A stretch of 56,044 nt of DNA from Bacillota bacterium (GTDB lineage Bacteria > Bacillota > Sulfobacillia > JAMDAP01), in assembly GCA_050260815.1 (NCBI GenBank), contig JBLNCQ010000114.1, positions 1 to 56,044 of the forward strand, in the 5' to 3' direction. How positions within the stretch are numbered: the stretch's first letter is position 1; every line of letters starts with the position of its first letter. The notes under the pieces are model-generated. The model was not told the DNA's origin. It searched no databases and worked only from the letters and a program-made list of their open reading frames with translations. Positions 5,530-46,828 of the stretch are shown here, piece by piece. The position numbers and the translations under genes are program-made.

Positions 5530-6686
<1,157 letters not shown>

Positions 6687-6767
6687 TACCTGGCAAGCCC
6701 CAAGTTCGATCTCCCCTTTCCGGACCTCCGGCCCGATGAAATCCGGTTCTCACGGTGTCCAGCGCAA

Positions 6768-10831: not shown

Positions 10832-10853
10832 GACAGGCCTCCCGCGCCCAGCT

Positions 10854-10874
10854 ATGTCCTTTCCAAGAGGACAT
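10854..10874. promoter_or_regulatory. Perfect 7-7-7 inverted repeat between the thrC promoter and start codon (candidate operator)
   Basis: ATGTCCT-ttccaag-AGGACAT, located downstream of the predicted -10 and 23 nt upstream of the thrC ATG. Confidence 0.35.
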
Positions 10875-10895
10875 TTGGCTTCTAGTTATGGACAC

Positions 10896-10924
10896 ATTAT
10901 ACGGGCCCGAGTGGCCCTCTGCAA
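10896..10924 (-). promoter_or_regulatory. Sigma-70/SigA-type promoter of thrC-thrB
   Basis: Minus strand TTGCAG (10919-10924), 17-nt spacer, TATAAT (10896-10901). Confidence 0.55.
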
Positions 10925-10956
10925 CAGGGGTAGACATAAAAAGGAGTCCGGGACGG

Positions 10957-10985
10957 AAAAAAGCCCTGCCGCCGTCCGGCAGGGC
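10957..10985 (-). terminator. Rho-independent terminator after the DoxX-like gene
   Basis: Minus strand GCCCUGCCG-GACGG-CGGCAGGGC followed by UUUUUU. Confidence 0.75.
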
Positions 10986-11015
10986 CATCGGGTCCAGAGA
11001 GCGGCAAGGGGCGGA

Positions 11016-11615
11016 TCAGGTGCCGCGGGCGGGCCGGCGCTGCCGAGCGGCGACCCCACCCTCCTCGCGCTCGTGCGGCCGCCAGGGGGTGCCGACCGCC
11101 GGCAGGAGCCAGCGGTCAAGGCCGTAGTACCCCGCCACCTTCCAGGCCAGGATGAGAAAGATCGAGATGGTGAACAACAGCGGGTTGGTGCTGGCGGAGC
11201 CGGCCATCATGAAGTTGAAGTTCATGAAGCCGCCCAGGAAAGCGGCAATGCCCGTGAACGCCCCCAGGAAGAGCAGCACGCCTACTGCCAGTTCACCAAA
11301 CACCACCAGTTTCGCAAACCAGCTGTACGAACCGGTGTCCAGCAGGTACTGGATGAAACTGCGGTACCAGTCGAAGGAGATGGGTGGCTTGGGTGAGGTC
11401 ACCACTGCTCTTGTCCAATAGGCCTTCAGCGCCTCGCCCGTCTGGGTCCAGGCCGGGTTGCCCAGTTTGTGGTAGCCGGCCACGAACCATTCATAACCCA
11501 GATACAGGCGGAGAACTAGCCACAACCAGGAGTAACGCGTCGTGTCGAAGAGGGCCTCGGCCCAGGGGGACCCCTGAACGGGAGGCCGCCCTCCTTCCCA
11601 TGGTCTGGTTGCCAT
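11016..11615 (-). CDS. DoxX/DoxD-like integral membrane protein
   Basis: Four predicted TM segments, with RLYLGYEWFVAGYHKL and FAKLVVFGELAVGVLLFLG resembling the DoxX family. Assignment is from remembered family features only. Confidence 0.65.
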   Translation of the reverse strand: MATRPWEGGRPPVQGSPWAEALFDTTRYSWLWLVLRLYLGYEWFVAGYHKLGNPAWTQTGEALKAYWTRAVVTSPKPPISFDWYRSFIQYLLDTGSYSWFAKLVVFGELAVGVLLFLGAFTGIAAFLGGFMNFNFMMAGSASTNPLLFTISIFLILAWKVAGYYGLDRWLLPAVGTPWRPHEREEGGVAARQRRPARGT

Positions 11616-11650
11616 TCGTCATGTCCCCTTTAGCAAAGATTAGCAACTCT

Positions 11651-11678
11651 ATTATAGATAAGGTCGGGGTTCAGGCAA
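11651..11678 (-). promoter_or_regulatory. Promoter of the DoxX-like gene
   Basis: Minus strand TTGCCT, 16-nt spacer, TATAAT, in an AT-rich patch. Confidence 0.5.
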
Positions 11679-11684
11679 AGGGCT

Positions 11685-11724
11685 AGGAGGAAACAAGGTC
11701 CATCCCTTACAGGATGGACCTTGT
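11685..11724 (-). terminator. Terminator ending the respiratory operon
   Basis: Minus strand ACAAGGUCCAUCC-UGUAAG-GGAUGGACCUUGU (13 bp) followed by UUUCCUCC. Confidence 0.7.
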
Positions 11725-11805
11725 ACAGTGGTTTCATGTACGCGCCGGCACATCGCCTGCGAAACGGGTCGGGTACAATCGGCTCGGGGACAGGGCTGCG
11801 GAAGA

Positions 11806-13251
11806 TCAAGGAGCGGGGGGCTGGGTGTGAATCGTTTGCGAGACATCGTGGCATTTGTGGCAGGCATCGGCGGTCTGGTCGTCCGGGTCCTGCTCACAGG
11901 CGGAGCCGTAGGCCAGCGGCACGGCGAACGGCTTGCCCGTCACCTTGCTGTACTGCACCAAGCGTTCTCCCTCAAACCGCAGGAACGGCAGCGTCTCGCC
12001 GGCGCCGGTGAGGCCCACCCTGTCGCCTACCCGCAGCGACGGGAAGCCGGATTGCAGCCAGCGCGGGTCCGCCAGGGCTGGGTCGCCGGCGTTGATGACC
12101 GTGCTCCGCGGCGGCGCCTGCGTTGTGCCGTGGCAGTCATAGCAGCGGACGGACTGCGCCTGATACTTGTTGCCCGCCGGCTTCCCGTCGCGGGCCGGGT
12201 CGCCCATCGTGTCATGACGGCTGTGGCAGTCGATGCAGTCCAGGGAGACCTCGCAGCGGGCGTAGCTCTCGCCGGGAATGTAGTACTCGCGCACCCGGGC
12301 GGCCCAGGCGGCCCCGTCTGTGGTGGGAGCGTGGGAACTCGTGGGCAGGTCTGTCCGCCGCTCAAAGGTCATCGAGACCAGCGAGTGGATGCCCTGGTTG
12401 TGGCAGGCGTTGCACTGCGTGTAGGGAATGCTGGCGGTCAGTCGATGGACGGCGCCGTGGCCCGCCTGGTCCTTGGAGATGGTGACGTCCTTCCCCTCGT
12501 AGGTGCCGGACCGGTTGTACAGGTAGTGGCAGGCGCTGCAGCCGCCGGAGTAAGTCCGGCCGGCGTCGCCGTGGGCGCCGCCCCACAGGTGGCACTGGGA
12601 TAGGCAGTTCTGCTGGAACGCCTCCTCCTGGGGGTGCCCGTCCAGCGGCGCGGTGATGTCGGCGGGCGATCCGTCCACGGGAAAGGCCGGCCGCTCCGCG
12701 TCCTTCTGCAGGCCAAAGGCCACGCGCACCTGGTTGATCTCGCCGGCCTTGCTGGCCATCGGGCTCTGCGCCAACCGCCCGGCCATGTTCAGTTCGGGGT
12801 GCTCCCTGCCGCTGTGGCAGGCTGCACCGTTCGGCCCTGTGCCGCAGCTCTGCTGGGCCACGCGCAGGTCGCCGGGGTTGCCGCCGCCCACAAGTCCCTC
12901 ATGGGCCTCGGTCTTGTCCAGAGAAAGGCCGTTGCCGCCGTGGCAGCCAATGCACCCCAGGACCTCCACCGGGTGGCTGGGGCTGATCTCCTCGATGCCC
13001 AGGTGGCAGGTCTGGCACCGATCTACACGTCCGTCGGGCAGGGTCAGGCTGACCACCTGCGGACTGCGGTCAATGCCCTCTCGCTGGAAGTACAGGTCCT
13101 GGTACGCCTGCCATTCCTGCCGGCGGTCCTGCCGCAGGTTCACCCACGCCACCTGGGCCAGCAGGCCCAGGCTGAGCAGTGCGAACGAGGCGGCAAGAAC
13201 GGGCCCCCGCCGACCGTGCCGGTCCGGGGCGGGGACCGGGCCCGATTTCAT
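11806..13251 (-). CDS. Membrane-anchored multiheme cytochrome c (7 CxxCH plus 2 atypical sites)
   Basis: CQTCH, CIGCH, CSACH, CNACH, CIDCH, CYDCH and CHKCH, plus CLSQCH (CX3CH) and CGTGPNGAACH (CX8CH). N-terminal TM segment LAASFALLSLGLLAQVAWV. ATG 13251 sits 6 nt after ACAGGAGGTG (the track starts at GTG 13260). Confidence 0.85.
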   Translation of the reverse strand: MKSGPVPAPDRHGRRGPVLAASFALLSLGLLAQVAWVNLRQDRRQEWQAYQDLYFQREGIDRSPQVVSLTLPDGRVDRCQTCHLGIEEISPSHPVEVLGCIGCHGGNGLSLDKTEAHEGLVGGGNPGDLRVAQQSCGTGPNGAACHSGREHPELNMAGRLAQSPMASKAGEINQVRVAFGLQKDAERPAFPVDGSPADITAPLDGHPQEEAFQQNCLSQCHLWGGAHGDAGRTYSGGCSACHYLYNRSGTYEGKDVTISKDQAGHGAVHRLTASIPYTQCNACHNQGIHSLVSMTFERRTDLPTSSHAPTTDGAAWAARVREYYIPGESYARCEVSLDCIDCHSRHDTMGDPARDGKPAGNKYQAQSVRCYDCHGTTQAPPRSTVINAGDPALADPRWLQSGFPSLRVGDRVGLTGAGETLPFLRFEGERLVQYSKVTGKPFAVPLAYGSACEQDPDDQTADACHKCHDVSQTIHTQPPAP

Positions 13252-31419: not shown

Positions 31420-31878
31420 TCACCGCGGGGCCGAAGGACCCTCCGGCTGGTCGGGCACGGCTCTGTGTCCCAGGCCAATGGCCACCTCGTTGAAGTGAAG
31501 CAGCCCGATACCCAGGTACACGGCCACGGTGAGGTTCCAGCCGCGGCGCGCCAATCCGATCTTCCCGCCGACATTGAGTCCAAGGGCCTTGGGCAACACC
31601 TGAGAGAAGGCCTCCTTGGCAGCGCCCGCCACCGAGCCCTGCTCCGTGGGGGTGGCGGCGATGAGGCCCTCTCTTTCTGCGGCCACCACTGCCCGCTCCA
31701 CGCCTTTCTTCAGCAGCGTCATGTAGTCGCCGCCGTAGTCCACGGCCGCGCAGTGAATGCCCTCCCGGGCGTAGTCCGCTTTGAGAGCGGCCTCCTCGGC
31801 CCGGTCCTTCGTCAGAGCCAGGCGCGCCGCTGCACGGGCTACCTCCACCGTGACCGCCAGCGAATCATGAGACTCCAT
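31420..31878 (-). CDS. HutP-family RNA-binding antiterminator-like protein
   Basis: C-terminal WNLTVAVYLGIGLLHFNEVAIGLGHRAV parallels B. subtilis HutP DWIAVSLYGTIGAPIKGLEHETFGVGINHI. Size is about 150 aa from ATG 31878. Confidence 0.7.
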   Translation of the reverse strand: MESHDSLAVTVEVARAAARLALTKDRAEEAALKADYAREGIHCAAVDYGGDYMTLLKKGVERAVVAAEREGLIAATPTEQGSVAGAAKEAFSQVLPKALGLNVGGKIGLARRGWNLTVAVYLGIGLLHFNEVAIGLGHRAVPDQPEGPSAPR

Positions 31879-32050
31879 GGGACACCTCGCATCTGTCAGA
31901 GTGGATGGGGCGAGCACCCCGCCCCCAATTCCTTCGCCTTCCACCCCTGCACTCCTCCAGCGCGGCCGCGCCGGGGCGGAGGGCACGGAGACCTGTCCGA
32001 CGAATCCTAGTCAGGTGGCGCTGCAGCGCGCCCCAGCCGGAGGTGATTGC

Positions 32051-32635
32051 TTGGTCTCCCTGACGGAACTGTTCTGGACGTACTTCCGCATCGGACTCCT
32101 GGGGTTCGGCGGCCCGTTTTCGCTGGTGTCCATTCAGCAGAAGACCGCTGTGGACAGGAAGAAGTGGCTGACCGAGGCGGAATTCGCTGAGTGCATGGGC
32201 ATCGGCTCGCTGACCCCGGGCCCCATCTCCTCCGGCACGGCCGCGGTGACGGCTTACCGGGTACGGGGCGTCGCCGGAGCCGCCGTGGCCTACTTTGCCT
32301 TCCACCTGCCGGCGGTGGCGCTGGTCACCGTTCTGGCCGCCACCTGGCGCCAGGCGGTGGCGCTTCCCTGGGTGCAGGGCGCGCTGCGCGGCGTGGGCGC
32401 AGCGGTGGTTGGCGTGCTCTGCGGCGTGGCTCTGAATACCGGCCGGTCGCTGATTCGGGACCTGCGCTCGGGCCTGGTGGCCGGCGGTGCCACCCTGGCC
32501 CTGGCGGCCTTCGGCGTGAATCCGCTCCTGGTGATGGTGGCCGCCGCCCTGACCGGGGTGCTCCTGCTGCGTCCCGCGCGGCAGCCGTCACCCGGTGCTG
32601 CGCCGAACGGCGGCAGCGCGAAGGGAGGGCACTAG
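32051..32635 (+). CDS. chrA: Chromate transporter (CHR family) half-protein 1
   Basis: FFRIGLLGFGGPFSLVS, IGSLTPGPIS. TTG 32051 sits 7 nt after GGAGGTG. Confidence 0.8.
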   Translation: MVSLTELFWTYFRIGLLGFGGPFSLVSIQQKTAVDRKKWLTEAEFAECMGIGSLTPGPISSGTAAVTAYRVRGVAGAAVAYFAFHLPAVALVTVLAATWRQAVALPWVQGALRGVGAAVVGVLCGVALNTGRSLIRDLRSGLVAGGATLALAAFGVNPLLVMVAAALTGVLLLRPARQPSPGAAPNGGSAKGGH

Positions 32636-32637
32636 AC

Positions 32638-33162
32638 ATGCTCTCCACCCTGGCGTTGCTCTTCGTCACCACGTTTGGCATTGGCGCCCTGACCTTCGGC
32701 GGCGGCTACGCCATTCTGCCGGTGCTGCAGTACCAGTACGTCACCCGGCTGCACCTCCTGACCCCGCAAGAGTTTGCCACGGGCATCGTCATTGGCCAGG
32801 TGACTCCGGGACCTCTCACCACCATGGTAGCCTTTGTGGGATACCACATTGCCCATGTGCCCGGAGCCGTGGTGGCTTCGGTGGGCATCCTGCTGCCCGC
32901 CTTCCTGGCGGCGGTGGGCGTGGCCCGCATCTATCACCGCTTTCAGGACGTGTCCAGCGTCAAGGCGGCCCTCCGGGGCATCTCGCTGGCCGTGGTGGGC
33001 CTCCTGGTGGCAGCCATCATTCCGCTGGCCCGGGACATGGTGACCACGCTGTTCACCCTGGCCTTGGCCGTCCTGGGCTTTGCGGCCACAGGGCCCTGGC
33101 GCAAAGACCCGGTCTGGGTGCTGCTGGCATCGGGCGTTCTGGGAGCGTTCCTGCTGCGGTAG
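32638..33162 (+). CDS. chrA: Chromate transporter (CHR family) half-protein 2
   Basis: FGIGALTFGGGYAILPVL, IGQVTPGPLTT. Confidence 0.85.
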   Translation: MLSTLALLFVTTFGIGALTFGGGYAILPVLQYQYVTRLHLLTPQEFATGIVIGQVTPGPLTTMVAFVGYHIAHVPGAVVASVGILLPAFLAAVGVARIYHRFQDVSSVKAALRGISLAVVGLLVAAIIPLARDMVTTLFTLALAVLGFAATGPWRKDPVWVLLASGVLGAFLLR

Positions 33163-33224: not shown

Positions 33225-33893
33225 CTACACAAACAGGTTGTTGACGCGCGCCACCTGCTCGGGCTCCGGGTGCTCCACAATCTGGTGCATGGGCAGCACG
33301 TAGGTGCATTCCGCCTGCAGGTTCTGAGACGTCTTGGTCACGTGGACGCGGCCTGGACCGGTCTCATAGCTGAAGTCCCATCCCAGCAGCATCACGCGCG
33401 TGCCAATGCCGTTCAGCTTGCGAACCAGGGGCACGTAGTCGCCGTCGCAAGCCACCAGGGCAATAACGTCGAAGCGCTTGTGAACGGCCAGGTCATAGGC
33501 CTCCAGAGACAGCCAGACGTCGATGCCCTTCTCGTAGGGACGGCCGGTGCCTTCCTCGATGCTCACGGGGTACTCATGCTGAACAATGCCCGTCGACACC
33601 ACGATATCCTGAAAAGAACGCTCGCCCGTCATGCGGCGGAGCCGTTCGCTGTCGTCAGGGTAGCGCTCCTGCATGGTGGGGGTCAGGATGCGCCCGCGGA
33701 ACCAGTGCGACTCAACAATCTGGCAGGTACGCTCCTCAACGCGCTCCTGCGCGGCCGCCTCGGCCTTGATGAAGTTGTGGATGCCATCAAAGGACAGGCG
33801 CCTCTGCCGGGGGTGCTGATACCGGTAGTAGTCGGAGACCTTGCCGAAGTAGTTGCCGTCGTAGAAGATTGCGATGCGCGTCAGGTCGCCCAT
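33225..33893 (-). CDS. NYN/LabA-like domain protein (predicted RNase fold)
   Basis: RIAIFYDGNYF, EKGIDVWLSLEAYDLA, ALVACDGDYVPLVRKL match the NYN (PF01936) pattern. Confidence 0.75.
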   Translation of the reverse strand: MGDLTRIAIFYDGNYFGKVSDYYRYQHPRQRRLSFDGIHNFIKAEAAAQERVEERTCQIVESHWFRGRILTPTMQERYPDDSERLRRMTGERSFQDIVVSTGIVQHEYPVSIEEGTGRPYEKGIDVWLSLEAYDLAVHKRFDVIALVACDGDYVPLVRKLNGIGTRVMLLGWDFSYETGPGRVHVTKTSQNLQAECTYVLPMHQIVEHPEPEQVARVNNLFV

Positions 33894-34158
33894 GTAGGCA
33901 CATCCCCTAAAGTATTGTCCTCTGCTACTTCTGAAAGCAGCGGGGGAATCCCTGCACGAGTCGCCTCCACGCGGGCGGCGCTAGGGCCCCCGGAATAGGC
34001 GAAAGTCTCCAGCCTGGGAACGGTGGCGCACCCGGTGGCGCGAGGCTGGCTTCGAGGCACGGATGGCGCTTCCAAGAAACCCCCGGTCGCGCCCTCGCAG
34101 GTTGAGGGCAGGCCGGGAGTCTGCTATTGGTGCATCATGGAGCGGGTGGCACCGGGGC

Positions 34159-34764
34159 TCAATCCCCCTGAGCTTCGACACATCTTCGCACGGCATTCAA
34201 GAACCGGCTTAGGCTTGGACAAACCTCGGCAGCCCTTTGTGGATTCCAGACGCCGGATGCAAATTCAATGAGCATCGCGGTGTAAACTGGGCCAACCCTT
34301 GCTTCACTGTCTCGCGCCGGAACCATCTGGCGCTGAATCTCACGCGAGGTCGATAATCGCGCAAGGTCAATCATGACTTGCTTTGCATCCGGTAGAAGCT
34401 CTGGTTCCGGCGGTACTCTGCTCCTATCAACACGCATAAACCTGGCTATTCCTTCACGGTCGCCGAGAAGCCATGCTTCTACCTGATGGACCGCAACTCG
34501 GAAGCACATACCCCCGGATGGTTCGGGCAGCCACTTGGCTACCAAGGCCGGGGCGCAGGGCGTCTCTTGGTCTAGGTCCACGAGGACAACCCAAGGGGCA
34601 AGACGAGCTGCGTGGTTGTACGCCGAAATCCTGGCCCTAAGCCGTTCCTTACCCCTCTTGATGTGGACGGGCCCCGCTTCAACCCGTAACTCCTCAAGAA
34701 CACGCCGAACAACCGCCTCATCGACGGGGCCCTCCACGGCAATGGTGACCCGAGTAGTCGTCAT
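34159..34764 (-). CDS. TOPRIM/OLD-nuclease-like small protein (DUF4435/DUF4276/RloB-like)
   Basis: IAVEGPVDEAVV (E-G-x-x-D), VVLVDLDQE (DxD), VHQVEAWLLGD. The start lies 14 nt after the ATPase stop. Confidence 0.55.
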   Translation of the reverse strand: MTTTRVTIAVEGPVDEAVVRRVLEELRVEAGPVHIKRGKERLRARISAYNHAARLAPWVVLVDLDQETPCAPALVAKWLPEPSGGMCFRVAVHQVEAWLLGDREGIARFMRVDRSRVPPEPELLPDAKQVMIDLARLSTSREIQRQMVPARDSEARVGPVYTAMLIEFASGVWNPQRAAEVCPSLSRFLNAVRRCVEAQGD

Positions 34765-34778
34765 GTCACCAGGCCTCG

Positions 34779-35906
34779 CTATTCGCCGAAGAAGGTTAGT
34801 TGCTGGACTTGGGACGGTCTGGTTCTGGGAAGAACAGCTTCGGCCATAGTAGCCCCGCCCTCGAGGAGTGCGTGTATTTGTGCATCGTCCTTGCCAAGTT
34901 GAATCTCGGTGCCTTCCTTGGACGGTACAAGAAGAAGAACCTCTTCCGGACCGATGCCGTCGTCCTCAAGCAGGCTCGGACTATGGGTGCTTAATAGCAC
35001 CTGCCTAGGCTTTTTCGTAACCAGCCGTGATATCATCTGCGGGATGTAGCGAACCACTTCCGGATGTAATGACAATTCCGGCTCCTCCAGTAGCAAGGGG
35101 CCTGAGTCGTCGAGAAGTGCCCAAAGGAGACCCATTAAACGAAGTGTCCCGTCCGAAAGCTGGCTCTCGTTCTGCCAACCTGCGTTCGGTCGCCAATGTT
35201 CATACAAGCTGAGTAGGTGAGGCGTGCCTTTCTCGTCCTTCTTCAACTGAAGGTCGCGTAACTGCGGCACTGCAACTTTAAGGGCATCTCTGATCTTGGC
35301 CAACCTGGAACTGAGGACTCTTGGCTGTGTCTTGGCCAACTGCTCCAGGAAATCGCCGCCATAAGGGTCTGCTTGCCTTCCCACTGAACGGTCGGGGTCT
35401 CGAACCAGCTGTGGGACGATATGCAAATAGCGGGCCGAGGCCAAGAACTTGACTACTTCGCGGAACGGTTTGTTGACGTTGACCTGTTCGAGCGCGGTCG
35501 CAGTCATGCGAATCGGATCCGCTTCATCCTCCGGATCTGGGCGCTTCAGTAGGAGGGACCGCCCCTTCCAGACTTCTTCACGCGTCAAAACAGGGCGGCT
35601 CTGATTATCCTGGGTGAAGGCAATCACATACCGCCAAACCGTACTGTTGGTCTCTAGAGACACATCGATACTAACGTCTGGATACCTACGTGCAGCATAG
35701 GAGCGGAGTTTGGAGACTCCACCCCTGCTGCTAACTGCGTTCTGAAAACTGCCTCCGACCTTGGCGATTTCTTGAAGAAACCTGAACACGTCAAGGAAAT
35801 TCGACTTACCGGAAGCGTTGGGACCAACAAGGAAGACTCTCGGTGTTAGTGACGCGTGGACCCGCTTGAAATTCCGCCAGTTCTCCAGCTGAATTTCCCT
35901 GTACAT
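34779..35906 (-). CDS. ABC/SMC-type AAA ATPase (AAA_15/AAA_21-like)
   Basis: LVGPNASGKSNFLD (Walker A), QLSDGTLRL (signature-like), LLLLEEPELSLHP (Walker B), LLSTHSP (H-loop). Confidence 0.8.
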   Translation of the reverse strand: MYREIQLENWRNFKRVHASLTPRVFLVGPNASGKSNFLDVFRFLQEIAKVGGSFQNAVSSRGGVSKLRSYAARRYPDVSIDVSLETNSTVWRYVIAFTQDNQSRPVLTREEVWKGRSLLLKRPDPEDEADPIRMTATALEQVNVNKPFREVVKFLASARYLHIVPQLVRDPDRSVGRQADPYGGDFLEQLAKTQPRVLSSRLAKIRDALKVAVPQLRDLQLKKDEKGTPHLLSLYEHWRPNAGWQNESQLSDGTLRLMGLLWALLDDSGPLLLEEPELSLHPEVVRYIPQMISRLVTKKPRQVLLSTHSPSLLEDDGIGPEEVLLLVPSKEGTEIQLGKDDAQIHALLEGGATMAEAVLPRTRPSQVQQLTFFGE

Positions 35907-35997
35907 CAGTCATCTCTCTTCTCCTGAGTGCCGTTTCAGGTCATTCGGACGGAATATTCAACGACCGTAGGCGTCAAACCTTCACACACACGCTTCC

Positions 35998-37419
35998 TTA
36001 CTCCTGCGGCAGCAGTGCCACACACTCAACGTGACTGGTGTGCGGGAACATGTCTACGGGCTGAATCTCTTTGCAGCGGTAACCGCGCTCCGTCAGGTGG
36101 GCCAGGTCCCGCGCCAGGGTGGCCGGATTGCAGGAGACATAGACGATGCGCTTCGGCCCCATCTGGACGAAGGCGTCCAGTGCGCTGGCCTCCACGCCGG
36201 CGCGTGGCGGATCCACCACCACCACGTCCGGGTGCAGCCCTTCCGCGGCCAGACGCGGCGCCCACTCCTCCACCGTGCCAACGCGGAACTCGGCGTTGCT
36301 CAGGCGATTGCGGATGGCGTTCTCCCGGGCATCGTCGATGGCCTCCGGCACCTCCTCGATGCCCAGAACGCGCCCCGCCCGCCGGGCCAGGCAGAGTGAG
36401 ATGGTGCCGATGCCGCAGTAGGCGTCCACCACGAACTCGTCGCCGGAGAGGCCCGCGAACTCCAGGGCCTTGCAGTAGAGGACCTCGGTCTGCTCCGGGT
36501 TGACCTGGAAGAAGGAGCGCGGCGAGATGGAGAAGGTCAGGCCCAGCAGTTCGTCCTCAATGGCGCCCGGCCCGGCCAGGGTGATGTTCTCCTCCCCCAG
36601 CACCACATTGGTGCGGCGCGGGTTCACGTTCTGTACCACCGTGACCAGCCCGGGCACCGCTGCCATCAGGTCCCGGGCGAAGTCCTGACCTCGAGGCAGG
36701 CGGCGCTCCGCCGTCACCAGGACGGCCATGGCCTGGCCGGACTTCGTGCCCACCCTGGCCAGCACATGGCGAACCAGGCCGGCGCCGCTGCGCTCGTCGT
36801 AGACGGGGTAGCCGTAGCGGGAAATCAGCCCCTTGGCGGCGGCCAGGATGCGGTTGTTGGTTTCGTTCTGGATCAGGCAGGCGTCGGCATCGATGACCTG
36901 GTGGGTGCCGCGGGCGTAGAGGCCGGCCACCACCCGAGGCTCGGGACTCGCCCCCGGCCCCCCGCCGGGGCGCAAGTTCAGGAGCCCCACCGGGAACTGC
37001 GCCTTATTGCGATAGTTCCAGGGGTTCTGAGCGCCGATGGTATCACGGACCAGGGCGGGGTCCAGATGGCCGATGCGCTGCAGGGCATCTTTCACCTGCT
37101 GCGTCTTGAGCGCCAACTGCCGTGGGTAGCTGACGTGCTGAAGCTGGCAGCCGCCGCAGGCCTCATAAATGGGGCACCGTGCCTCCACCCGGTCGGCGGC
37201 GGGGCGGTCAATGCTGACTAGCTCGGCTCGCACGTAGGTGGTTCGAACGTCAGTGAACCGCGCCGTCACGACGTCGCCCGGCATGGCGCCGGGGACGAAG
37301 ACCGCCATGCCATCGTGGCGGGCCACGCCTTCACCGCCGTGGCCCAATCCGGTCACTTCAAGCTGCACATCGGGCGCCGGCCGGGATCGCCGAGGATGTG
37401 ATTTGGGCTGCAGGGCCAT
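35998..37419 (-). CDS. rlmD: 23S rRNA (uracil-C5)-methyltransferase RlmD/RumA family
   Basis: TRAM-like N-terminus, CGGCQLQH Fe-S motif, DAYCGIGT SAM motif, VVVDPPRAG, YVSCNPATLARD. Confidence 0.9.
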   Translation of the reverse strand: MALQPKSHPRRSRPAPDVQLEVTGLGHGGEGVARHDGMAVFVPGAMPGDVVTARFTDVRTTYVRAELVSIDRPAADRVEARCPIYEACGGCQLQHVSYPRQLALKTQQVKDALQRIGHLDPALVRDTIGAQNPWNYRNKAQFPVGLLNLRPGGGPGASPEPRVVAGLYARGTHQVIDADACLIQNETNNRILAAAKGLISRYGYPVYDERSGAGLVRHVLARVGTKSGQAMAVLVTAERRLPRGQDFARDLMAAVPGLVTVVQNVNPRRTNVVLGEENITLAGPGAIEDELLGLTFSISPRSFFQVNPEQTEVLYCKALEFAGLSGDEFVVDAYCGIGTISLCLARRAGRVLGIEEVPEAIDDARENAIRNRLSNAEFRVGTVEEWAPRLAAEGLHPDVVVVDPPRAGVEASALDAFVQMGPKRIVYVSCNPATLARDLAHLTERGYRCKEIQPVDMFPHTSHVECVALLPQE

Positions 37420-39422: not shown

Positions 39423-39728
39423 CTAGTGGCAGCAACCATGTCCGCCGTGGCCATGCCCGCCGTGCCCCATGGCGTGACCGTCGTGCTGGTGATCCTGGGC
39501 AGGCTGGGCTGCGGCATCCGTGCCGACCAGCGTGTACCCGGCCTCGCTCACGGCAGCCTCAAAGTCCTTCATCGTGGCCAGAGACGGGTCATAGGTGACG
39601 GTAGCCGTCCCGGCCGATGCGCTGGCGGCGGCAGTAGCAACGCCCCGCAGCTTCTTGAGTTCCTTAACGACGCTCATCTCACAGTGCGAGCAGGTCATCC
39701 CTTCAACGTTCAGCACGACCGTTTCCAT
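39423..39728 (-). CDS. copZ: Copper chaperone CopZ (HMA domain) with His-rich C-terminal tail
   Basis: VEGMTCSHCE. Tail is DHQHDGHAMGHGGHGHGGHGCCH. ATG 39728 follows AAAGGGGAGGG. Confidence 0.85.
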   Translation of the reverse strand: METVVLNVEGMTCSHCEMSVVKELKKLRGVATAAASASAGTATVTYDPSLATMKDFEAAVSEAGYTLVGTDAAAQPAQDHQHDGHAMGHGGHGHGGHGCCH

Positions 39729-39750
39729 GTTGGAACCCTCCCCTTTCGCA

Positions 39751-40035
39751 TTAAAGAAGCCTCTTAAGAAGTTCACTGAGTTCCGCCTCCATTTCATCAC
39801 CGTTTCCTCGTTGGATGGCGTCCGCCACGCAGCCGCGTGCATGGTCCACCAGGAGCCGCACGGCGATCTGGTCCAGGGCCGCACGCACGGCTGCAATCTG
39901 GTTCAGGATGTCGGCGCAGCGGCGCTGCTGCTCCACCATGCGCTGAATGCCGCGGATCTGGCCCTCAACCTTGGCCAGTCGCTCCAGTAGTTCGGGCGCG
40001 TCCCTTCCGCGCGCGGCTGACATCATGGCCTCCAT
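39751..40035 (-). CDS. csoR: CsoR-family copper-sensing repressor
   Basis: LAKVEGQIRGIQRMV, with the C..H-x3-C ligand pattern (RRCADI .. DHARGC). Confidence 0.85.
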   Translation of the reverse strand: MEAMMSAARGRDAPELLERLAKVEGQIRGIQRMVEQQRRCADILNQIAAVRAALDQIAVRLLVDHARGCVADAIQRGNGDEMEAELSELLKRLL

Positions 40036-40039
40036 GGCC

Positions 40040-42307
40040 TTAGGCCCGGAATCCGTGCATCGGATTGAAGCGCTTTAGCAGCGAGGAGTTAGTGACAACG
40101 GAGACGGAGCTGAAGGCCATAGCCGCTCCGGCGATGGCCGGAGCCAAGTAGCCGAAGGCCGCAATGGGGATACCCGCCGTGTTGTAGATCAGGGCCCAGA
40201 ACAGGTTCTGCTTGATCTTGCGCATGGTCTGACGGCTCAGGCGGATGGCCGCGGGGATGCCCCGCAGGTCGCCCCGCATCAGGGTGATGCCGGCCGCCTC
40301 CATGGCCACGTCTGTGCCCGTGCCGATGGCCATGCCCAGGTCGGCGGCCACCAGGGCGGGTGCATCGTTGATGCCGTCACCCACCATACCGACCACTCGC
40401 CCCTCACCCTTGAGGGATTCCACCTTGGACGCCTTCTGCTCAGGCAGCACTTCGGCCAGCACGTGCTCCGGCTTGATCCCCACCTGAGCGGCAATGGCGG
40501 CGGCAGTACTGCGGTTGTCGCCGGTGATCATCCAGACCTCAATGCTCATCTGCTGCAGGGCGGCGATGGCCTCGCCCGAGGTCTCCTTGACCGTGTCGGC
40601 CACGGCCACCAGCCCGGCCAGCCGGCCATCCACGGCCACCCACATGGCCGTCTTGCCCTGCCCCTCCAGCGTCTGCTTCCGCGCAGCGGCGGCCCCGGGG
40701 TCGATGCCATTGTCGGTCATGAGCTTGGTTGTACCCACCAGCAGGCTGCGCCCGTCCACCACGGCCCTCACTCCGCGCCCCGGGATGGCCTCAAACGAGT
40801 CGGGGTCGCCAAGCTCCAGACCGCGGTCCTTCGCTCCCGCCACAATGGCCTGCGCCAGGGGGTGCTCCGACATCCGTTCCGCCCTGGCGGCCAGCCGGAG
40901 CAGGTCCTCTTCCGACAGTGCGGCTCCATCGTCGGCCGCAAGCACCATCACGTCGGTGAGCGCCGGTTCGCCCTTGGTGATGGTGCCGGTCTTGTCCAGC
41001 ACCACGGTGTTCAGCATGTAGGCCTTCTCCAGGTGCTCGCCGCCGCGGATGAGGATGCCCTTCTCCGCCCCCAGGCCGGTCCCCACCATGATGGCGGTGG
41101 GGGTGGCCAGGCCAAGGGCGCAGGGGCAAGCGATGACCAGCACCGCCGTAAAGTAGAGAATGGCGCGGGTATAGTCTCCGGTGAACGCGATCCAGCCGAG
41201 GAACGTCAGGACGGCAATGCCGATAACCGCTGGTACAAAGTAGGCCGAGACCACGTCCGCCAGGCGCTGGATGGGCGCCTTGTGCGTCTGCGCCTCCTCC
41301 ACCACCCGGATGATCTGAGCCAGGGCGGTATCACGGCCCACCTTGGTGGCTTCCATGCGGATGACCCCGCACCCGTTTATGGTGGCACCGATGACCTCGT
41401 CACCCGGCTTCTTGTCCACGGGGATGGACTCGCCCGTGAGCATGGACTCGTCTACGGTGGAGTGACCATCCTGCACGATGCCGTCCACGGGAATCTTCTC
41501 ACCCGGCCTGACCAGCAGCAGGTCGCCCACCTGGACGTCCTCCAGAGGAATCTGCTGTTCCTGGCCGTCGCGGATGACCGTAGCCGTCTTGGCCTGCAGA
41601 CCCATCAGCTTCTTGATGGCCTCTGACGTGCGCCCCTTGGCCACGGCCTCCAGGTACTTGCCCAGGATAATCAAGGTAATGATCACGGCCGCGGTCTCGT
41701 AGTACACATCGCTGCGTCCAATGGCGTCGCCCCAGATGGTGACCACCAGGCTATAGAGGTAGGCAGCCGTGGTGCCCAGGGCGATCAGGACCGACATGTT
41801 CGCCGTGCGGTTCTTCAGATTGTGGTAGCTGTCCACGTAGAACTGCCAGCCGGCGTAGAACTGGACCGGTGTAGCCAGGGCCAGTTGGAACCAGGGATTC
41901 ATAAAGATCATGGGCGGATGGAAGCCGAAAAGTTCCCCGAACATGTAGACCAACAGCGGCACCGTCAGGGCCGTAGAGAACCAGAAGAGCCGCCACTGTC
42001 GCATGAGCTCCCGTTCGCGGGCCTCTTTCTCGGCGTCGGTGCTGCCGGCCTCATCCTTGGCGAACGCCTCATAACCCAGGTCCTTGACCGCGTGCTTCAT
42101 ATCGGCGACGCTGACCGCGCCCGGCAGATAGGAAACCAGGGCCGTCTCGGTCCCGAAGTTGACAGTGGCCTGCAGGACACCATCCATGCCGGATAGCTTG
42201 CGCTCGATCTTCTGGGCGCAGTTGGCGCAGGTCATGCCGCGAATGCCAAAAGACAGGCGATGCAGGGCCAGGTCTCTCTGGGCGAGGGCCGCAGACTGTC
42301 CTGTCAT
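40040..42307 (-). CDS. copA: Copper-translocating P1B-type ATPase
   Basis: GMTCANC HMA domain, [28 protein letters not shown] 42307 follows GGGAGTG. Confidence 0.95.
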
Positions 42308-42336
42308 GAAGAACACTCCCATCGGTTCAGTTTACC

Positions 42337-42509: not shown

Positions 42510-44183
42510 TCAGCCCGCGCAACAGCTCAACTTCGAGACGTCGGTGTCAAAGGCCATTGCAGCCAACTTCAAGCCTTCTGCCATGGTGAGATAGGGAGCC
42601 AGTGTGTCCTTGAGGTCCTGGACCGTAAGGCCGAACTTAACGGCCAGCGTGGCCGCATAGATCACGTCGCCGGCGTTCCCAGCAACGACGTGGGCACCCA
42701 GGATCTTGCCCGTTTGGGCCTCGGCCACCAGCTTGAAGACACCTGTGGTTTCGCGGTTGGCCAGGGCACGGGGAACCGCCTTCAGCGGCAGGACCGATGT
42801 CCGGATCTCACGGCCCCCCTGCCGGGCCTCGGCTTCCGTCAGCCCAACGGTGGCGACCGACGGGTTGGTAAAGGTCACCGCCGGTACCACCCGCAAGTCC
42901 AGTTCGCGCTCCGCCCCTCCCACGGCGACGTCGGCGACCAGGGCGCCTTCATAGGCGGCAACATAGACAAACTGGGGACCGAGGGTAACATCTCCGGCCG
43001 CGAAGATGTGGGGAATGTTGGTTCGCAAGTACTCGTCCACCAGGACCTCAGCGCGGGAGCCAACGGCTACACCGACATTGGCCAGGCCAAGGGAGTCGGT
43101 GTTGGGCCGGCGCCCTGCCGCTACCAGGAGCCGCTCGGCCTCAACGGTGTGTACCGTCCCATCCTTTTCGAAGTGGACACGGCTCTTGCCGTCGCCTCCT
43201 TCCACGTTCCGGTACCTGACCCCGGTGATGACATCAATCCCCTCGTCGCGAAGCGCCTGCTCTATGGCTTCAGAGATCTCGGGATCGTACCGCTTTAGCA
43301 GACGCGCGCCGCGCTGCAACAGCGTCACGTGCGTCCCCAGATGGCGGAAAAGCTGCCCCAGCTCGAGAGCAATGTAGCCGGCGCCGATGACGACCAGACT
43401 CTTCGGAACCTCCTTCAGCTCCAACGCCGAAGCACTGGTCAAGTAGGGAACACCGGCCAACCCGGGAATCTCCGGCACGGCCGGCGAGGCACCCGTGGCG
43501 ATGAGGAAGTGGCTCGCTGTGACTCTCCCCTCACCTACTTGCAGCGTGTGCTCATCCACGAACCGAGCCTCACCTGGGATCAGGTCAAACCCGTATTCGG
43601 CGATGAGATCAACGTATTTCTCCTGGCGCATGTCAGCTACAAGCCGGTTCTTCTGTCCTACAAGAAGACCCAGATCGACTGGCGCCACTGCCGTTCCCAG
43701 GCCGGCAAAGGGGTTGTTCCGGGCTGCAAAGTAGATCTCGGCCGCACGCAAAAGGGTTTTCGACGGAACGCAGCCGATGTTAACGCAGGTGCCGCCGACC
43801 GTGCCGCGTTCGATCATGGCCACTCGAGCGCCGTGGCTTCGGGCCCGAATAGCGGCAGAGAAGGCCGCACCGTGAGAGCCTATGATGGCCAGGTCATACG
43901 GCTGGTCTCTCTGACCACCGCCACCGGGAGCGGCGCCGCTCGCTCGGCGACTCACCTCTTCCCACTCCCCCGGGTGATACCCGGCTTTGCCCACAGCCTC
44001 GGCAAACGGGCTGACGTCTGCCCCGCCGGGGATGCTGAAATCGGCCTCGCCGCGGCGATAACTCACCTCGACCTGCTCGGCTCCCGCGCCCGCGAGTGCC
44101 TTGCAAACATGTTCTTCGCAGCTTGGGCAGCTCATGCCGCCGATGGTCATTCGGATCTGCCGAATCAAACCCTGATTAACCAT
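42510..44183 (-). CDS. merA: Mercuric reductase with N-terminal HMA domain
   Basis: [22 protein letters not shown] redox-active disulfide, C-terminal KLSCCAG Cys pair. ATG 44183 follows GGGAGGAAC. Confidence 0.9.
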
Positions 44184-44350
44184 GACACTTGTTCCTCCCG
44201 GGGCAGTAGATCGCCGCCAAGGCGGCAGAAAACATGGCACCGAGACCGCTAAGGCGCTCCAACTGAGATTCGCTCCCCTCTCCGTCGGCGTGTCGCGGCG
44301 TTCCGGCGAATCGCAGGCGGTCCGCTTCACGTACTACGAGACGCAGGCGA

Positions 44351-44737
44351 TCAGTTGGACTTCTGCGCCCCCATCCTTGTGCAGGTACGAATGTGTTCCG
44401 CATTGTCGGCCACAACGGCCTGCGCCAATTCGATCAAGCTGCGGATACGGCCGTCCGTGACCCGATAGTAGACATACTTGCCCTTACAGGTCGATGTGAC
44501 GTATCCACACCACTTGAGGCACCCCAGCTGGTTGGATATCTGTCCTTGAGACATCCCCACAGCGGTGATGATCTCGCTGACGTTCATCTCTCCCCGTTCC
44601 AGGAGCAGCTCCACAATCCGGAGCCGGGTCGGGTTGGCGAGACCATCGAAGAACTTCGCATGCATTTCGCGCTGCCTGGTCTCAAGCTCAAGCGACAGAC
44701 CGGGATTGACGCGAACAGCAGGAGGCAAGTTGCTCAC
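44351..44737 (-). CDS. ArsR/SmtB-family metalloregulator
   Basis: LANPTRLRIVELL, wHTH VSEIITAVGMSQGQISNQLGCLKWCG. Upstream of merA. Confidence 0.85.
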   Translation of the reverse strand: MSNLPPAVRVNPGLSLELETRQREMHAKFFDGLANPTRLRIVELLLERGEMNVSEIITAVGMSQGQISNQLGCLKWCGYVTSTCKGKYVYYRVTDGRIRSLIELAQAVVADNAEHIRTCTRMGAQKSN

Positions 44738-45004
44738 CTCTACGACTCCAAATTTTTAAATATGATGGCCTTACGCTACTGCATGTCGCCGGCGTGTGTC
44801 AAGTGGACAGGCTGGGCGGAAGGCCCGGGACGCCTTCCCACGGCTTCTTGGCAGTGGTCTTTAGCCGTTTGTGTAGATGTTGTGGATTCGGTCCCAGGTA
44901 GCCTATTGGGTGAACAACTTCACGGTAACATCACAAGTTGGCTGTAGACTAGGCCGTGGCTGCTCCAAACTCACCACAGGATACCTTTTTCCGGAGGAGG
45001 CAAA

Positions 45005-46003
45005 ATGACCAAGGCTCCCCATATCAAACACTGGAGCAAAGTCTTGTCTTTGGCTCCTATTATCGCTATTCTCATGTTGACACCGGGGACAGGCGGACGC
45101 ACCGCGCACCTGCCGGAAACGAATAGCATTGCCACAATGACACAGACTGTCACCGGGCCCGAAGAGGAATTGAGGCCTGAGCAGCGTGTCCGGACACCTG
45201 CACCCGTCTATGTCACCCATGAGGTGAAGTCCGGAGATAGCGTGTGGGCCATTGCTCAGGCGCATGGTCTCTCAGAAGCCAGCGTTGGAGCATCCAATAA
45301 CCTTGGGGAAAACGCCATCCTGCAGCCAGGTCAGGAATTGCTGGTGCCCACCCAGGAGGGCCTTCTCTACAAGGTCCTGTATGGTGATACGGCGGACGGG
45401 CTGGCCAATCGATTCGGCCTCACAGTGGAAGCCATCACTGCCGCAAACCCCGAACTGGACCCGGAAAAGCTAGCCATCGGCCAGCGCCTGCTGCTGCCGG
45501 GTAGCCAGGCTCCGGAAAAGTTCTACCTGGACCGCGTGCGCGTGGCTTCAGCCGGCAGCGGCGCTTCGCGTTCTTCGGGGAGCGTCGCCTCTCGCGGCAG
45601 CAGCCGGCCGTCGGCTGGAGCGTTTGACTTCTGGCCCGTCAGGGGACAGGTGACCAGCGGCTTCGGCTGGCGCCGCCACCCCGTGTACGGCACGCGCAGC
45701 TTTCACGAGGGGCTGGACATATCGGCACCCAGCGGCACATCCATCAAGGCGGTCCGCGAGGGCAAGGTCATCTTCTCCGGGCCGCTGGGAGACTACGGCC
45801 TGACGGTCAAGATACAGCATCGCGATGGCATGGTCACCCGTTATTCCCACAACTCCGAGAACCTGGTGAGCGTGGGTGACACGGTGCAGGCCGGCGACGT
45901 GATCGGTCTGGTCGGACGCACCGGCGTGGCCACCGGTCCCCATGTGGACTTTGGTGTGATCGTGGGCGGCTCGCCGGTGGATCCGAGGCCCTGGCTCCCA
46001 TAA
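45005..46003 (+). CDS. LysM-domain M23 (LytM-type) peptidoglycan endopeptidase
   Basis: Two LysM-like repeats (HEVKSGDSVWAIAQ.., YKVLYGDTADGLAN..), HEGLDI and TGPHVDF M23 motifs. Confidence 0.85.
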   Translation: MTKAPHIKHWSKVLSLAPIIAILMLTPGTGGRTAHLPETNSIATMTQTVTGPEEELRPEQRVRTPAPVYVTHEVKSGDSVWAIAQAHGLSEASVGASNNLGENAILQPGQELLVPTQEGLLYKVLYGDTADGLANRFGLTVEAITAANPELDPEKLAIGQRLLLPGSQAPEKFYLDRVRVASAGSGASRSSGSVASRGSSRPSAGAFDFWPVRGQVTSGFGWRRHPVYGTRSFHEGLDISAPSGTSIKAVREGKVIFSGPLGDYGLTVKIQHRDGMVTRYSHNSENLVSVGDTVQAGDVIGLVGRTGVATGPHVDFGVIVGGSPVDPRPWLP

Positions 46004-46021
46004 ACGGAAGGGAGGACCACA

Positions 46022-46828
46022 ATGCGTCCCATCCTCTTTACGATAGCAGGCTTCCCCGTTCGGTCCTACGGCTTCTTCATCGCCGTGGGCATCATCGCCG
46101 GCCTGTGGCTGGCCGTCGCCGTGGCTCGGCGGAGAAAGCGGCCCTATGCCGAGCTGATCTGGGATTTCGCCCTGACGGCCATGATCAGCGGCATCCTTGG
46201 CGCCCGCGTCTGGGAAGTCGTCTTTACCTGGGACTACTACGGCCAGCACCTGGTGGAGATCCCCATGCTCTGGCACGGCGGTCTTTCCATCCAGGGCGCC
46301 ATCGCCGGCGGTCTGCTGGCGGCCATTTGGTTCACCCGCAAGCACCGCATCCCCATGTGGGACTTTCTTGACACGCTGACGCCCGGCGTACTGCTGGGAC
46401 AGGCCATTGGTCGGCTGTTCGCCTGCTTCCTCAACGGCGATGCGTATGGCAAGCCTACCGGCAGTTGGTTCGGGGTCATCTACCAGCCTGACACCGCGGC
46501 GTACCAGGTCTTCGGGGCGCAGCGCCTGTGGCCGGCCGAGGTCTTTGAAGGCCTCTGGGACCTGGCCGTGATGGGCCTGGCCTTGTGGATGCTGTTCCGG
46601 CGGAAGCAGCCGGCCCAGGGCCGGGTTGTGCTCTGGTACCTGGTGCTCTATTCCCTCGGTCGCTTTGGCCTGGAGTTCCTGCGGGCCGACAGCCTTGGCT
46701 TCTTCGGCACCGGGCTGAAGGCGGCTCAGGTCACCAGCCTGGTCACCGCGGCCGTCGCCGGAGCCCTCCTCTTCGCCCGCAGGGGTCAGGGCAAGGCGCT
46801 GACCCAGGACCGGCCCACGGAGGCCTGA
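46022..46828 (+). CDS. lgt: Prolipoprotein diacylglyceryl transferase
   Basis: FPVRSYGFFIAVG, GGLSIQGAIAGG, GQAIGRLFACFLNGDAYG. Confidence 0.9.
   Translation: MRPILFTIAGFPVRSYGFFIAVGIIAGLWLAVAVARRRKRPYAELIWDFALTAMISGILGARVWEVVFTWDYYGQHLVEIPMLWHGGLSIQGAIAGGLLAAIWFTRKHRIPMWDFLDTLTPGVLLGQAIGRLFACFLNGDAYGKPTGSWFGVIYQPDTAAYQVFGAQRLWPAEVFEGLWDLAVMGLALWMLFRRKQPAQGRVVLWYLVLYSLGRFGLEFLRADSLGFFGTGLKAAQVTSLVTAAVAGALLFARRGQGKALTQDRPTEA

Follow-up and report, generated by a model that had tools for sequence, protein, structure and literature searches.

In the PARIS system, an ATPase scaffold senses the trigger and frees a nuclease, which then cleaves tRNA (PMC11464382), and in MADS the integral parts include Mad3, an AAA ATPase, and Mad4, a DUF4276 protein (PMC12065111; Maestri et al. 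2024). HEC-01, the Hma-embedded candidate 01 of PADLOC-DB v2 (Payne et al., bioRxiv 10.1101/2024.01.29.577857), has a gene for an ABC ATPase followed on the same strand by one for a small TOPRIM-like protein. Here we describe a gene pair of the same order in contig JBLNCQ010000114.1 of a Bacillota bacterium (assembly GCA_050260815.1; the whole 56-kb stretch analysed is referred to as the window), and report that, by its profile matches, this pair is a member of the already catalogued PADLOC candidate family HEC-01 in a poorly sampled lineage. We hold, with moderate confidence, that the locus is a stand-alone, horizontally acquired HEC-01 cassette, in which a compact ABC ATPase and a 22-kDa metal-dependent nuclease of the DUF4276/TOPRIM type would together form an anti-phage or anti-mobile-element system.

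Assignment of the pair to HEC-01

Both proteins matched HEC-01 models of PADLOC over their full length and far above every other defence model. PADLOC holds many hidden Markov models per HEC-01 gene; the ATPase, hereafter HEC-01A, aligned to PDLC04180 with residues 4-371 on profile positions 5-379 of 382 (E 5e-151, 501 bits), and the partner, hereafter HEC-01B, aligned to PDLC04194 with residues 1-196 on positions 1-198 of 204 (E 3.2e-59). The PADLOC matches of the small protein were to HEC-01 models only, and those of the ATPase extended to AriA (PDLC02980, 2e-35), AbiLi (1.4e-24), mad3 (3.4e-21), Old (5.5e-17) and GajA (1.3e-13). A first-pass annotation, made from the DNA letters alone, had proposed an ABC-type ATPase with a TOPRIM-like partner of the anti-phage kind, and the HEC-01A and HEC-01B matches bear this out. 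The features of the locus, in their order along the minus strand and with the G+C content at third codon positions (GC3) of the genes, are as follows:

35998-37419, minus strand: rlmD-type 23S rRNA (uracil-5) methyltransferase, 473 aa; flanking resident core gene, GC3 0.86
35907-35997, minus strand: spacer from the stop codon of rlmD to the start of the ATPase gene, 91 nt, GC 0.516
34779-35906, minus strand: HEC-01A, ABC ATPase (AAA_21/AAA_15 type), 375 aa, GC3 0.60
34765-34778, minus strand: spacer between the genes of the pair, 14 nt
34159-34764, minus strand: HEC-01B, DUF4276-type TOPRIM-like putative nuclease, 201 aa, GC3 0.57
33225-33893, minus strand: NYN-domain protein, 222 aa; flanking gene, GC3 0.84

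HEC-01A matched the Pfam families AAA_21 (1.7e-36) and AAA_15. The motifs quoted at the first pass are all present in the two proteins, and in the ATPase they begin at residues 28 (GPNASGKS), 250 (LSDGT) and 306 (STHS); the Walker B motif needs correction, as it reads PLLLEEPE, with three leucines and not four. The nucleotide-binding sites comprise Walker A at G28-S35 (with K34), the signature at S251-T254, Walker B at L272-E277 (with E274 and E275), the D-loop at S279-H281 and the H-loop at T307-H308, and the residues of all five are invariant in an alignment of 50 ATPase homologs. An AlphaFold2 (AF2) model of the protein (pLDDT 83.3) is without a long coiled coil, and its best Foldseek matches were PtuA (of Septu and retron effectors), Rad50 and GajA, with E values of 5e-14 to 1e-11 and TM scores of about 0.5. 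Judged by this predicted fold, HEC-01A is a compact Rad50/PtuA-like ATPase of the ABC and not of the AAA+ type. Comparison with PDB sequences reached the OLD ATPase 6p74 at 1e-7, through an EEPExxLHP-type Walker B/D-loop, and AriA over residues 240-313 only, around Walker B (E 4e-4).

The partner carries the motifs EGPVD at residue 11, DLDQE at 63 and EAWLL at 96, and among 60 homologs the acidic residues E11, D15, D63 and E96 are invariant, with D65 kept in at least 90%; this E..D / DxD / E pattern fits two-metal TOPRIM catalysis. Pfam DUF4276 (PF14103) matched HEC-01B at 25.3 bits (E 2.2e-5), below its gathering cut-off of 30.2, in an alignment that spans nearly the whole profile (residues 10-191 on positions 1-190 of 192), and the same family was matched at E<=0.1 by 57 of the 60 homologs, at best with 7.4e-8. 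On these alignments we regard HEC-01B as a divergent branch of DUF4276. Among the families named for the small protein at the first pass, DUF4276 is thus retained, whereas DUF4435 and RloB gave no profile match.

The AF2 model of HEC-01B (pLDDT 91.9, pTM 0.88) shows an N-terminal four-strand beta-alpha core (residues 5-100) and a C-terminal helical half (103-200). Its top two Foldseek matches were to the C-terminal TOPRIM region of X. campestris OLD (6njx/6njw, probability 0.98-0.99), and those below them were Rossmann-like noise. A search of PDB sequences with HEC-01B returned no related entry, and against a viral fold library no match was significant, an RloB-like protein coming closest in geometry (TM 0.50). 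DUF4276 has been placed in the TOPRIM superfamily with a conserved Glu and a DxD (PMC12065111), and HEC-01B has been stated to share the OLD metal-binding site (bioRxiv 10.1101/2024.01.29.577857). Taking together the fold matches, the conserved acidic residues and these published assignments, we consider HEC-01B likely, although not proven, to be a TOPRIM-like nuclease. Profile searches hence place the small protein in a TOPRIM-type family, and not in the non-nuclease family that the first-pass annotation had set against its own proposal.

Among the described systems PARIS, which is classed as OLD-like class 4, offers the best mechanistic analogy, since it too combines a split ABC ATPase with a separate, tightly linked TOPRIM-type effector. 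AriB, however, is a DUF4435 protein of about 300 aa, whereas the partner here is DUF4276-like, has 201 aa and matched neither DUF4435 (Pfam, E<=1) nor AriB (PADLOC, E<=1). The ATPases differ as well: AriA has 464 aa with coiled-coil insertions, in contrast to 375 aa and no long coiled coil here, and AriA was absent among the 50 Foldseek matches listed for HEC-01A. The PADLOC match to AriA seems to be generic, because its residue and profile range is identical to that of the Pfam AAA_21 match. As for AbiL, the AbiLi match of the ATPase (1.4e-24) lies far below that to HEC-01A, and PADLOC gave no AbiLii match for the partner. The PARIS/AbiL assignment suggested at the first pass is therefore set aside, as there is no DUF4435, AriB or AbiLii match and the 'AriA' matches are of the generic AAA_21/AAA_15 type.

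Nor does the pair fall in OLD or Gabija, the other names proposed there, by the models that define them. It resembles OLD and GajA (classes 1-2) in that its Walker B/D-loop sequence matches the OLD ATPase, the best structural match of the HEC-01B model is the TOPRIM region of OLD, and the E..D / DxD / E acidic pattern would suit the same catalysis. In those proteins, unlike here, ATPase and TOPRIM are fused in one chain of about 580 aa, to which Gabija adds the helicase GajB; the pair consists of two separate open reading frames (ORFs), its Old and GajA matches are confined to motif regions, and no UvrD-like gene lies nearby. Mad3 and Mad4 of MADS likewise place an AAA_21-type ATPase next to a DUF4276 protein. 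The NCBIfam MAD3 model matched the ATPase at 7.6e-24, with 84.6 bits against a cut-off of 420, the partner was without an NCBIfam match, and there is no methyltransferase or other mad gene near the pair, whose neighbours are rlmD, EamA, NYN, ChrA and HutP. Septu and retron Ec78 (PtuA-PtuB) also pair an ABC ATPase with a small nuclease, and of the solved structures PtuA lies nearest to HEC-01A (E 5e-14, TM ~0.5); yet PtuB is an HNH and not a TOPRIM nuclease, PtuA is larger than HEC-01A, and the NCBIfam PtuA model scored 19.5 bits against a cut-off of 500, with the sequence likeness limited to the P-loop. Neither protein of the pair scored above cut-off in NCBIfam.

For annotation, this means that PADLOC would call the locus HEC-01, and that the NYN gene is not to be grouped with the pair. 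HEC-01 is among the more abundant candidate systems in environmental metagenomes and its activity has barely been validated; a small stand-alone pair with clear catalytic residues would be a reasonable subject for a first HEC-01 biochemistry.

An accessory islet downstream of rlmD

The pair, rlmD and NYN all lie on the minus strand. In 400-nt windows, G+C stands at about 0.69 over rlmD and drops to 0.50-0.58 over the pair. At 0.558, the pair itself (34159-35906, 1748 nt) is the minimum among all windows of the same size in the 56 kb (mean 0.664, standard deviation 0.03) and lies about 3.5 standard deviations below the mean. The GC3 of the pair, 0.60 for HEC-01A and 0.57 for HEC-01B, contrasts with 0.79-0.88 in neighbouring genes (rlmD 0.86, NYN 0.84, an ABC substrate-binding protein 0.88, an LD-carboxypeptidase 0.82 and HutP 0.79). 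Both the windowed and the codon-position analysis therefore show that the drop in G+C noticed at the first pass is real and exceeds chance; the hand counts given there for single 60-nt rows (33/60 at 35581, 28/60 at 35641 and 46/60 at 36181) were exact, and so were the ORF sizes, the strand and the 14- and 265-nt gaps. The islet had been drawn at 33225-35997, and this extent has to be narrowed: lower G+C characterises the pair and the 91-nt spacer, whereas the NYN part is host-like. The compositional islet consists of the two genes and the 91-nt upstream spacer, approximately 34159-35997, with NYN outside it.

The successive intergenic gaps from rlmD through the ATPase and the small protein to NYN are 91, 14 and 265 nt. 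The first of these spacers is likely to be the left edge of the acquired DNA and may carry a promoter. Within the 14-nt spacer, a GAGG about 10 nt before the ATG of HEC-01B is likely to be its ribosome-binding site, and the short spacing suggests that HEC-01A and HEC-01B are co-expressed. A search around the pair found neither a sigma-70 consensus nor a terminator, and no Rfam family matched. In agreement with the first-pass remark that the borders show no integrase or tRNA, there is no integrase among the annotated neighbours of the pair and no tRNA gene anywhere in the window; direct or inverted repeats of note do not flank the pair.

The window lineage belongs to uncultured high-GC soil Bacillota, and soil metagenomes contain the locus. 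A search for relatives of rlmD gave 160 loci across Bacillota with 45-88% amino acid identity. The nearest rlmD genes in GTDB were 54-56% identical and came from Symbiobacteriaceae metagenome-assembled genomes; the 80 GTDB rlmD loci (<=56% identity) were too distant for informative synteny, and a metagenome scan then supplied a closer relative, L092. In four related metagenomic loci (L001-L004), whose rlmD C-terminus is 85% identical to that of the window, the pair is present at the same site downstream of rlmD; between the window and L001, where the ATPase lies at 500-1627, amino acid identity is 84.5% for the ATPase, 65% for the partner and 83% for NYN. In L092, whose rlmD is 88% identical, upstream synteny extends over the LD-carboxypeptidase, EamA and rlmD genes at 80-85% nucleotide identity, and the part homologous to the window reaches no further than 36016, the 3' end of rlmD, after which comes an opposite-strand PAP2-family membrane gene; no HEC-01 gene was found within the 1 kb available past rlmD. 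Of the 160 rlmD loci fetched, 159 (L001 apart) were without the pair beside rlmD.

The three relatives (window, L001 and L092) thus have three different gene contents downstream of rlmD. Its atypical composition, its absence from L092 and its presence in L001 together mean that the pair is accessory and not core, and the pair is a horizontally acquired accessory islet. Conservation of the pair as core genes at this locus was the finding that the first-pass annotation had named as counting against it; a relative with an 88% identical rlmD is without the pair. At four-fold degenerate sites of rlmD, the excess identity of the window is 0.49 with L092 and 0.26 with L001, which makes L001 the outgroup. 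As the window and L092 are sisters, the pair was either lost in L092 or gained twice.

Within the species the pair looks fixed, given that in four soil metagenomes the read depth over the pair equals that over its flanks and a clean deletion joint did not appear. In metagenome X4, a single contig joins 33764, in NYN, to 36427, in rlmD, with 27 unmatched letters; considered as an empty site, it has no clean joint and is uninterpretable, and it may reflect an artefact of the assembly graph or come from a diverged relative. The upstream spacers of the window and L001 (91 and 63 nt) are not significantly alike (47 matches versus 43.5 +/- 2.3 in shuffled sequences), and the downstream junctions of the pair are unrelated in the two.

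Both genes of the pair are maintained by selection. Between the window and L001, nonsynonymous divergence (dN) is 0.115 for the ATPase, 0.116 for rlmD, 0.115 for NYN and 0.27 for the partner. The synonymous sites of the pair are saturated, since of 318 positions with the same residue 109 also have the same codon, where chance alone would give 113, whereas those of the flanking genes are not (NG86 synonymous divergence, dS, 0.77-0.99; excess identity at four-fold sites 0.17-0.26). Low dN together with saturated synonymous sites shows strong purifying selection on both genes, and the ORFs of the pair are intact in the two lineages. The identity of the ATPase alleles at four-fold sites was even below chance (23/146 versus 39 expected, p=0.001); since this deficit vanishes over all synonymous codons (109 versus 113), we treat it as saturation and not as a signal. 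Divergence of the partner is over twice that of the ATPase (dN 0.27 versus 0.115), with substitutions spread over the whole protein; the partner of the relative (P0122) keeps all catalytic acidic residues and has Arg in place of the nearly invariant C87.

It is puzzling that, despite this synonymous saturation, the GC3 of the pair has stayed at about 0.6 in both lineages and has not moved toward the 0.8-0.9 of the host. One possibility is that the two alleles predate the split of their hosts, having come to the site by allele exchange or by two acquisitions at a hotspot; another is that something holds the GC3 of the pair low. A broader proposal, which we regard as doubtful but worth stating, is that the compact HEC-01 subfamily is an autonomous, minimal PARIS-like abortive-infection system with a 22-kDa DUF4276 TOPRIM effector gated by a 375-aa ABC ATPase, and that the rlmD site is an integrase-less hotspot at which deeply diverged HEC-01 alleles are exchanged. 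Such an exchange would explain why synonymous saturation and a foreign GC3 occur beside moderately diverged flanks. Leaving this proposal aside, the stand-alone HEC-01 cassette is unusual only mildly, in occupying a stand-alone, integrase-less spot by rlmD and in showing no amelioration despite saturation; it is a tidy small example of a variable spot beside a core gene without mobility genes.

Homologs of the ATPase form a large family and occur across phyla at a fairly uniform 60-65% identity, the sole closer one being 85% identical; their hosts include Symbiobacterium thermophilum, Chloroflexota, Rokubacteria, Methylomirabilis, Alphaproteobacteria, Deltaproteobacteria and Bacteroidota, and the partner family shows about 50% identity. 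HEC-01B lies immediately downstream of HEC-01A on the same strand in all eight independent contexts (window, L001-4, L005, L006/7, L088, L089, L090 and L091), with gaps of 0-3 nt in contexts other than the window. In S. thermophilum (L005, AP006840.1) the pair lies between argininosuccinate-lyase-type and S8 protease genes, and in L006/7 between aldo-keto reductase and YheCD ATP-grasp genes. In L088 it adjoins SNIPE/T5orf172 and trypsin-like genes, in L090 integrase, resolvase and AAA_25 genes, and in L089 and L091 it is found inside canonical Hma operons, in the order SNF2/NOV_C helicase, pair, DUF1156 methylase and DUF499. Homologs of the same subfamily (60% amino acid identity) are thus embedded in Hma systems, as the name HEC-01 implies, whereas the pair described here stands alone between housekeeping genes of a high-GC soil Bacillota, outside any Hma system. 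Foreign composition recurs elsewhere: the GC3 of the pair is 0.51-0.56 in S. thermophilum, against 0.92-0.96 in its neighbours, and 0.35-0.36 in L006, against 0.76-0.79.

The L089 Hma operon contains two different HEC-01 pairs, at 6001-7745 and 10767-12609, on either side of the methylase gene. In the records of L005 (9135-9755) and L088 (7137-7733) HEC-01B has not been called as a gene; in S. thermophilum it is intact, encodes 206 aa and has its ATG right behind the stop codon of the ATPase gene.

Proposed function and competing explanations

By analogy with split OLD-type systems, the pair may act against phage or other mobile elements. An ATP-bound dimer or higher oligomer of the ATPase would hold or gate the TOPRIM partner, and a cue of infection, be it a protein of the phage, foreign nucleic acid or a shift in nucleotide pools, would be sensed through the ATPase, upon which HEC-01B could be released or activated. 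It would then cut nucleic acid (DNA or tRNA/RNA) by two-metal TOPRIM chemistry involving E11/D15 and D63/D65, each pair presumably serving one of two metal sites as in class 2 OLD structures, and this cleavage might stop the phage directly or by abortive infection. That the function is of a defence type finds support in the same subfamily occurring inside Hma systems and beside integrase/resolvase and SNIPE/T5orf172 genes.

Several points weigh against this proposal. The complex of HEC-01A and HEC-01B and its trigger are postulated purely by analogy. The fold scores that relate HEC-01B to the OLD TOPRIM are modest (E ~2e-3, TM 0.37-0.41), its Pfam DUF4276 match is sub-threshold (25.3 versus 30.2 bits), and the canonical Toprim, DUF4435 and RloB models gave no profile match to it. 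The window is without the character of a defence island, the neighbours being housekeeping and metal-resistance genes; no close homolog of the ATPase was found in a phage collection, and in a plasmid collection there was one distant homolog, 42% identical, on a Ralstonia megaplasmid. RNA sequencing runs were sought and none was identifiable, and no evidence of transcription was found. Furthermore, the HEC-01 representative of the defining study gave no protection against the phage panel used there (bioRxiv 10.1101/2024.01.29.577857). A cold-seep study picked one HEC-01 cluster at random and reported that it protected E. coli B from one or more of the phages T4, T5 and T7 (PMC12881386); this positive report is sparse in detail, the published tests concern representatives other than this locus, and elsewhere HEC-01 continues to be listed as a candidate (PMC12853721). 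What stands of the defence reading made at the first pass is thus membership in a candidate family, with a negative first test and one later representative reported as protective with few details, and 'defence' is for this pair a candidate label.

The same facts might be read in terms of a toxin-antitoxin (TA)-like addiction module, in which HEC-01B would be a toxic nuclease and HEC-01A its ATP-dependent neutraliser; the pair would then be retained through the lethality of its loss, and any anti-phage role would not be meaningful. An architecture of a small nuclease with a larger ATPase is also that of PARIS, whose AriA chains have been deposited as 'AriA antitoxin', and the Pfam entry for AAA_21 reads 'putative AbiEii toxin, Type IV TA system'; the maintenance of an intact pair in two lineages without mobility genes and the negative first phage test of HEC-01 would suit such a module as well. 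Yet L092 lost or never gained the pair, so addiction cannot be absolute, and the same subfamily is repeatedly found in Hma systems, with one representative reported to be protective. We consider a TA-like module unlikely, and it would in any case not be mutually exclusive with abortive-infection defence. It also seems rather improbable that HEC-01 is an accessory module in need of Hma or MADS-like methylation systems, which would make the copy described here an orphan with no function, or a different one, on its own. Five of the eight contexts are stand-alone or not beside a methylase (window, L001, L005, L006 and L088), and the pair of L090 sits among mobile-element genes, although those of L089 (two pairs) and L091 do lie inside Hma operons. 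A HEC-01 taken from an Hma system was inactive alone (bioRxiv 10.1101/2024.01.29.577857), and MADS has a Mad3 ATPase and a DUF4276 Mad4 as integral parts, the PADLOC mad3 model matching HEC-01A at 3.4e-21; on the NCBIfam scale, however, MAD3 reached 84.6 against a cut-off of 420 with no Mad4-type match, and the annotated neighbours in the window include no Hma or MADS genes. Purifying selection on both genes, with every catalytic residue intact, likewise speaks against an orphan.

Rad50-like ATPases and TOPRIM enzymes (RNase M5, RecR and OLD) include housekeeping members, and the pair lies on the same strand as its flanking genes, 91 nt after rlmD and 265 nt before NYN with no terminator predicted, and is fixed in the population sampled by four soil metagenomes. 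A housekeeping role in DNA repair or RNA processing, possibly together with rlmD and NYN, is nevertheless very unlikely in view of the foreign GC3 in every host examined, the patchy spread across phyla at 60-65% identity, the absence of the pair beside rlmD in L092 and nearly all rlmD loci fetched, and the lack of co-occurrence with NYN or rlmD in other contexts. We give hardly any credence to a three-gene system with the NYN protein as an RNase component, which the first-pass annotation had entertained for a same-strand gene 265 nt away. The gene does match Pfam NYN (6.5e-14), and some candidate defence systems, HEC-09 for one, include NYN proteins (bioRxiv 10.1101/2024.01.29.577857), but its own PADLOC match to HEC-09 is at noise level (E 0.018) and its GC3 of 0.84 is host-like, as opposed to 0.57-0.60 in the pair. 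In L001 the 83% identical NYN gene is kept apart from the pair by PMT_2, on the opposite strand, and by an ORF of 130 aa, with HutP directly after NYN, and NYN is absent in seven other HEC-01 contexts; neither it nor rlmD was found in those of S. thermophilum, L006/7 and L088-L091. NYN and rlmD are resident genes and not components of the system. The TA-like and orphan-module explanations are the less improbable rivals of a HEC-01 defence cassette, whereas the housekeeping and three-gene explanations are disfavoured by composition, distribution and synteny.

Other neighbouring genes

Between HutP (31420-31986, minus strand) and NYN, the window has two adjacent, half-size ChrA chromate-transporter genes (31877-33162, plus strand). 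These are missing in the syntenic L001, where HutP comes directly after NYN, which makes this a second insertion or deletion difference close to the pair. On the other side of rlmD, a second stretch of lower G+C (0.59-0.62) extends over approximately 43000-46500, with genes at 42510-46003: a MerA-like pyridine-nucleotide disulphide oxidoreductase whose N terminus carries an HMA domain (42510-44330, minus strand), an ORF of 184 aa without a Pfam match (44393-44947, plus strand) and a LysM and M23 peptidase gene (45005-46003, plus strand). A copper-resistance cluster (39423-42322, minus strand) comprises a CsoR-type metal-sensitive repressor (39751-40035), an HMA-domain copper chaperone-like ORF (39423-39896), the call of which overlaps the CsoR-type ORF, and a P-type ATPase with an HMA domain (40040-42322). 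With this cluster and the MerA-like and ChrA genes, the region is rich in metal-resistance functions.

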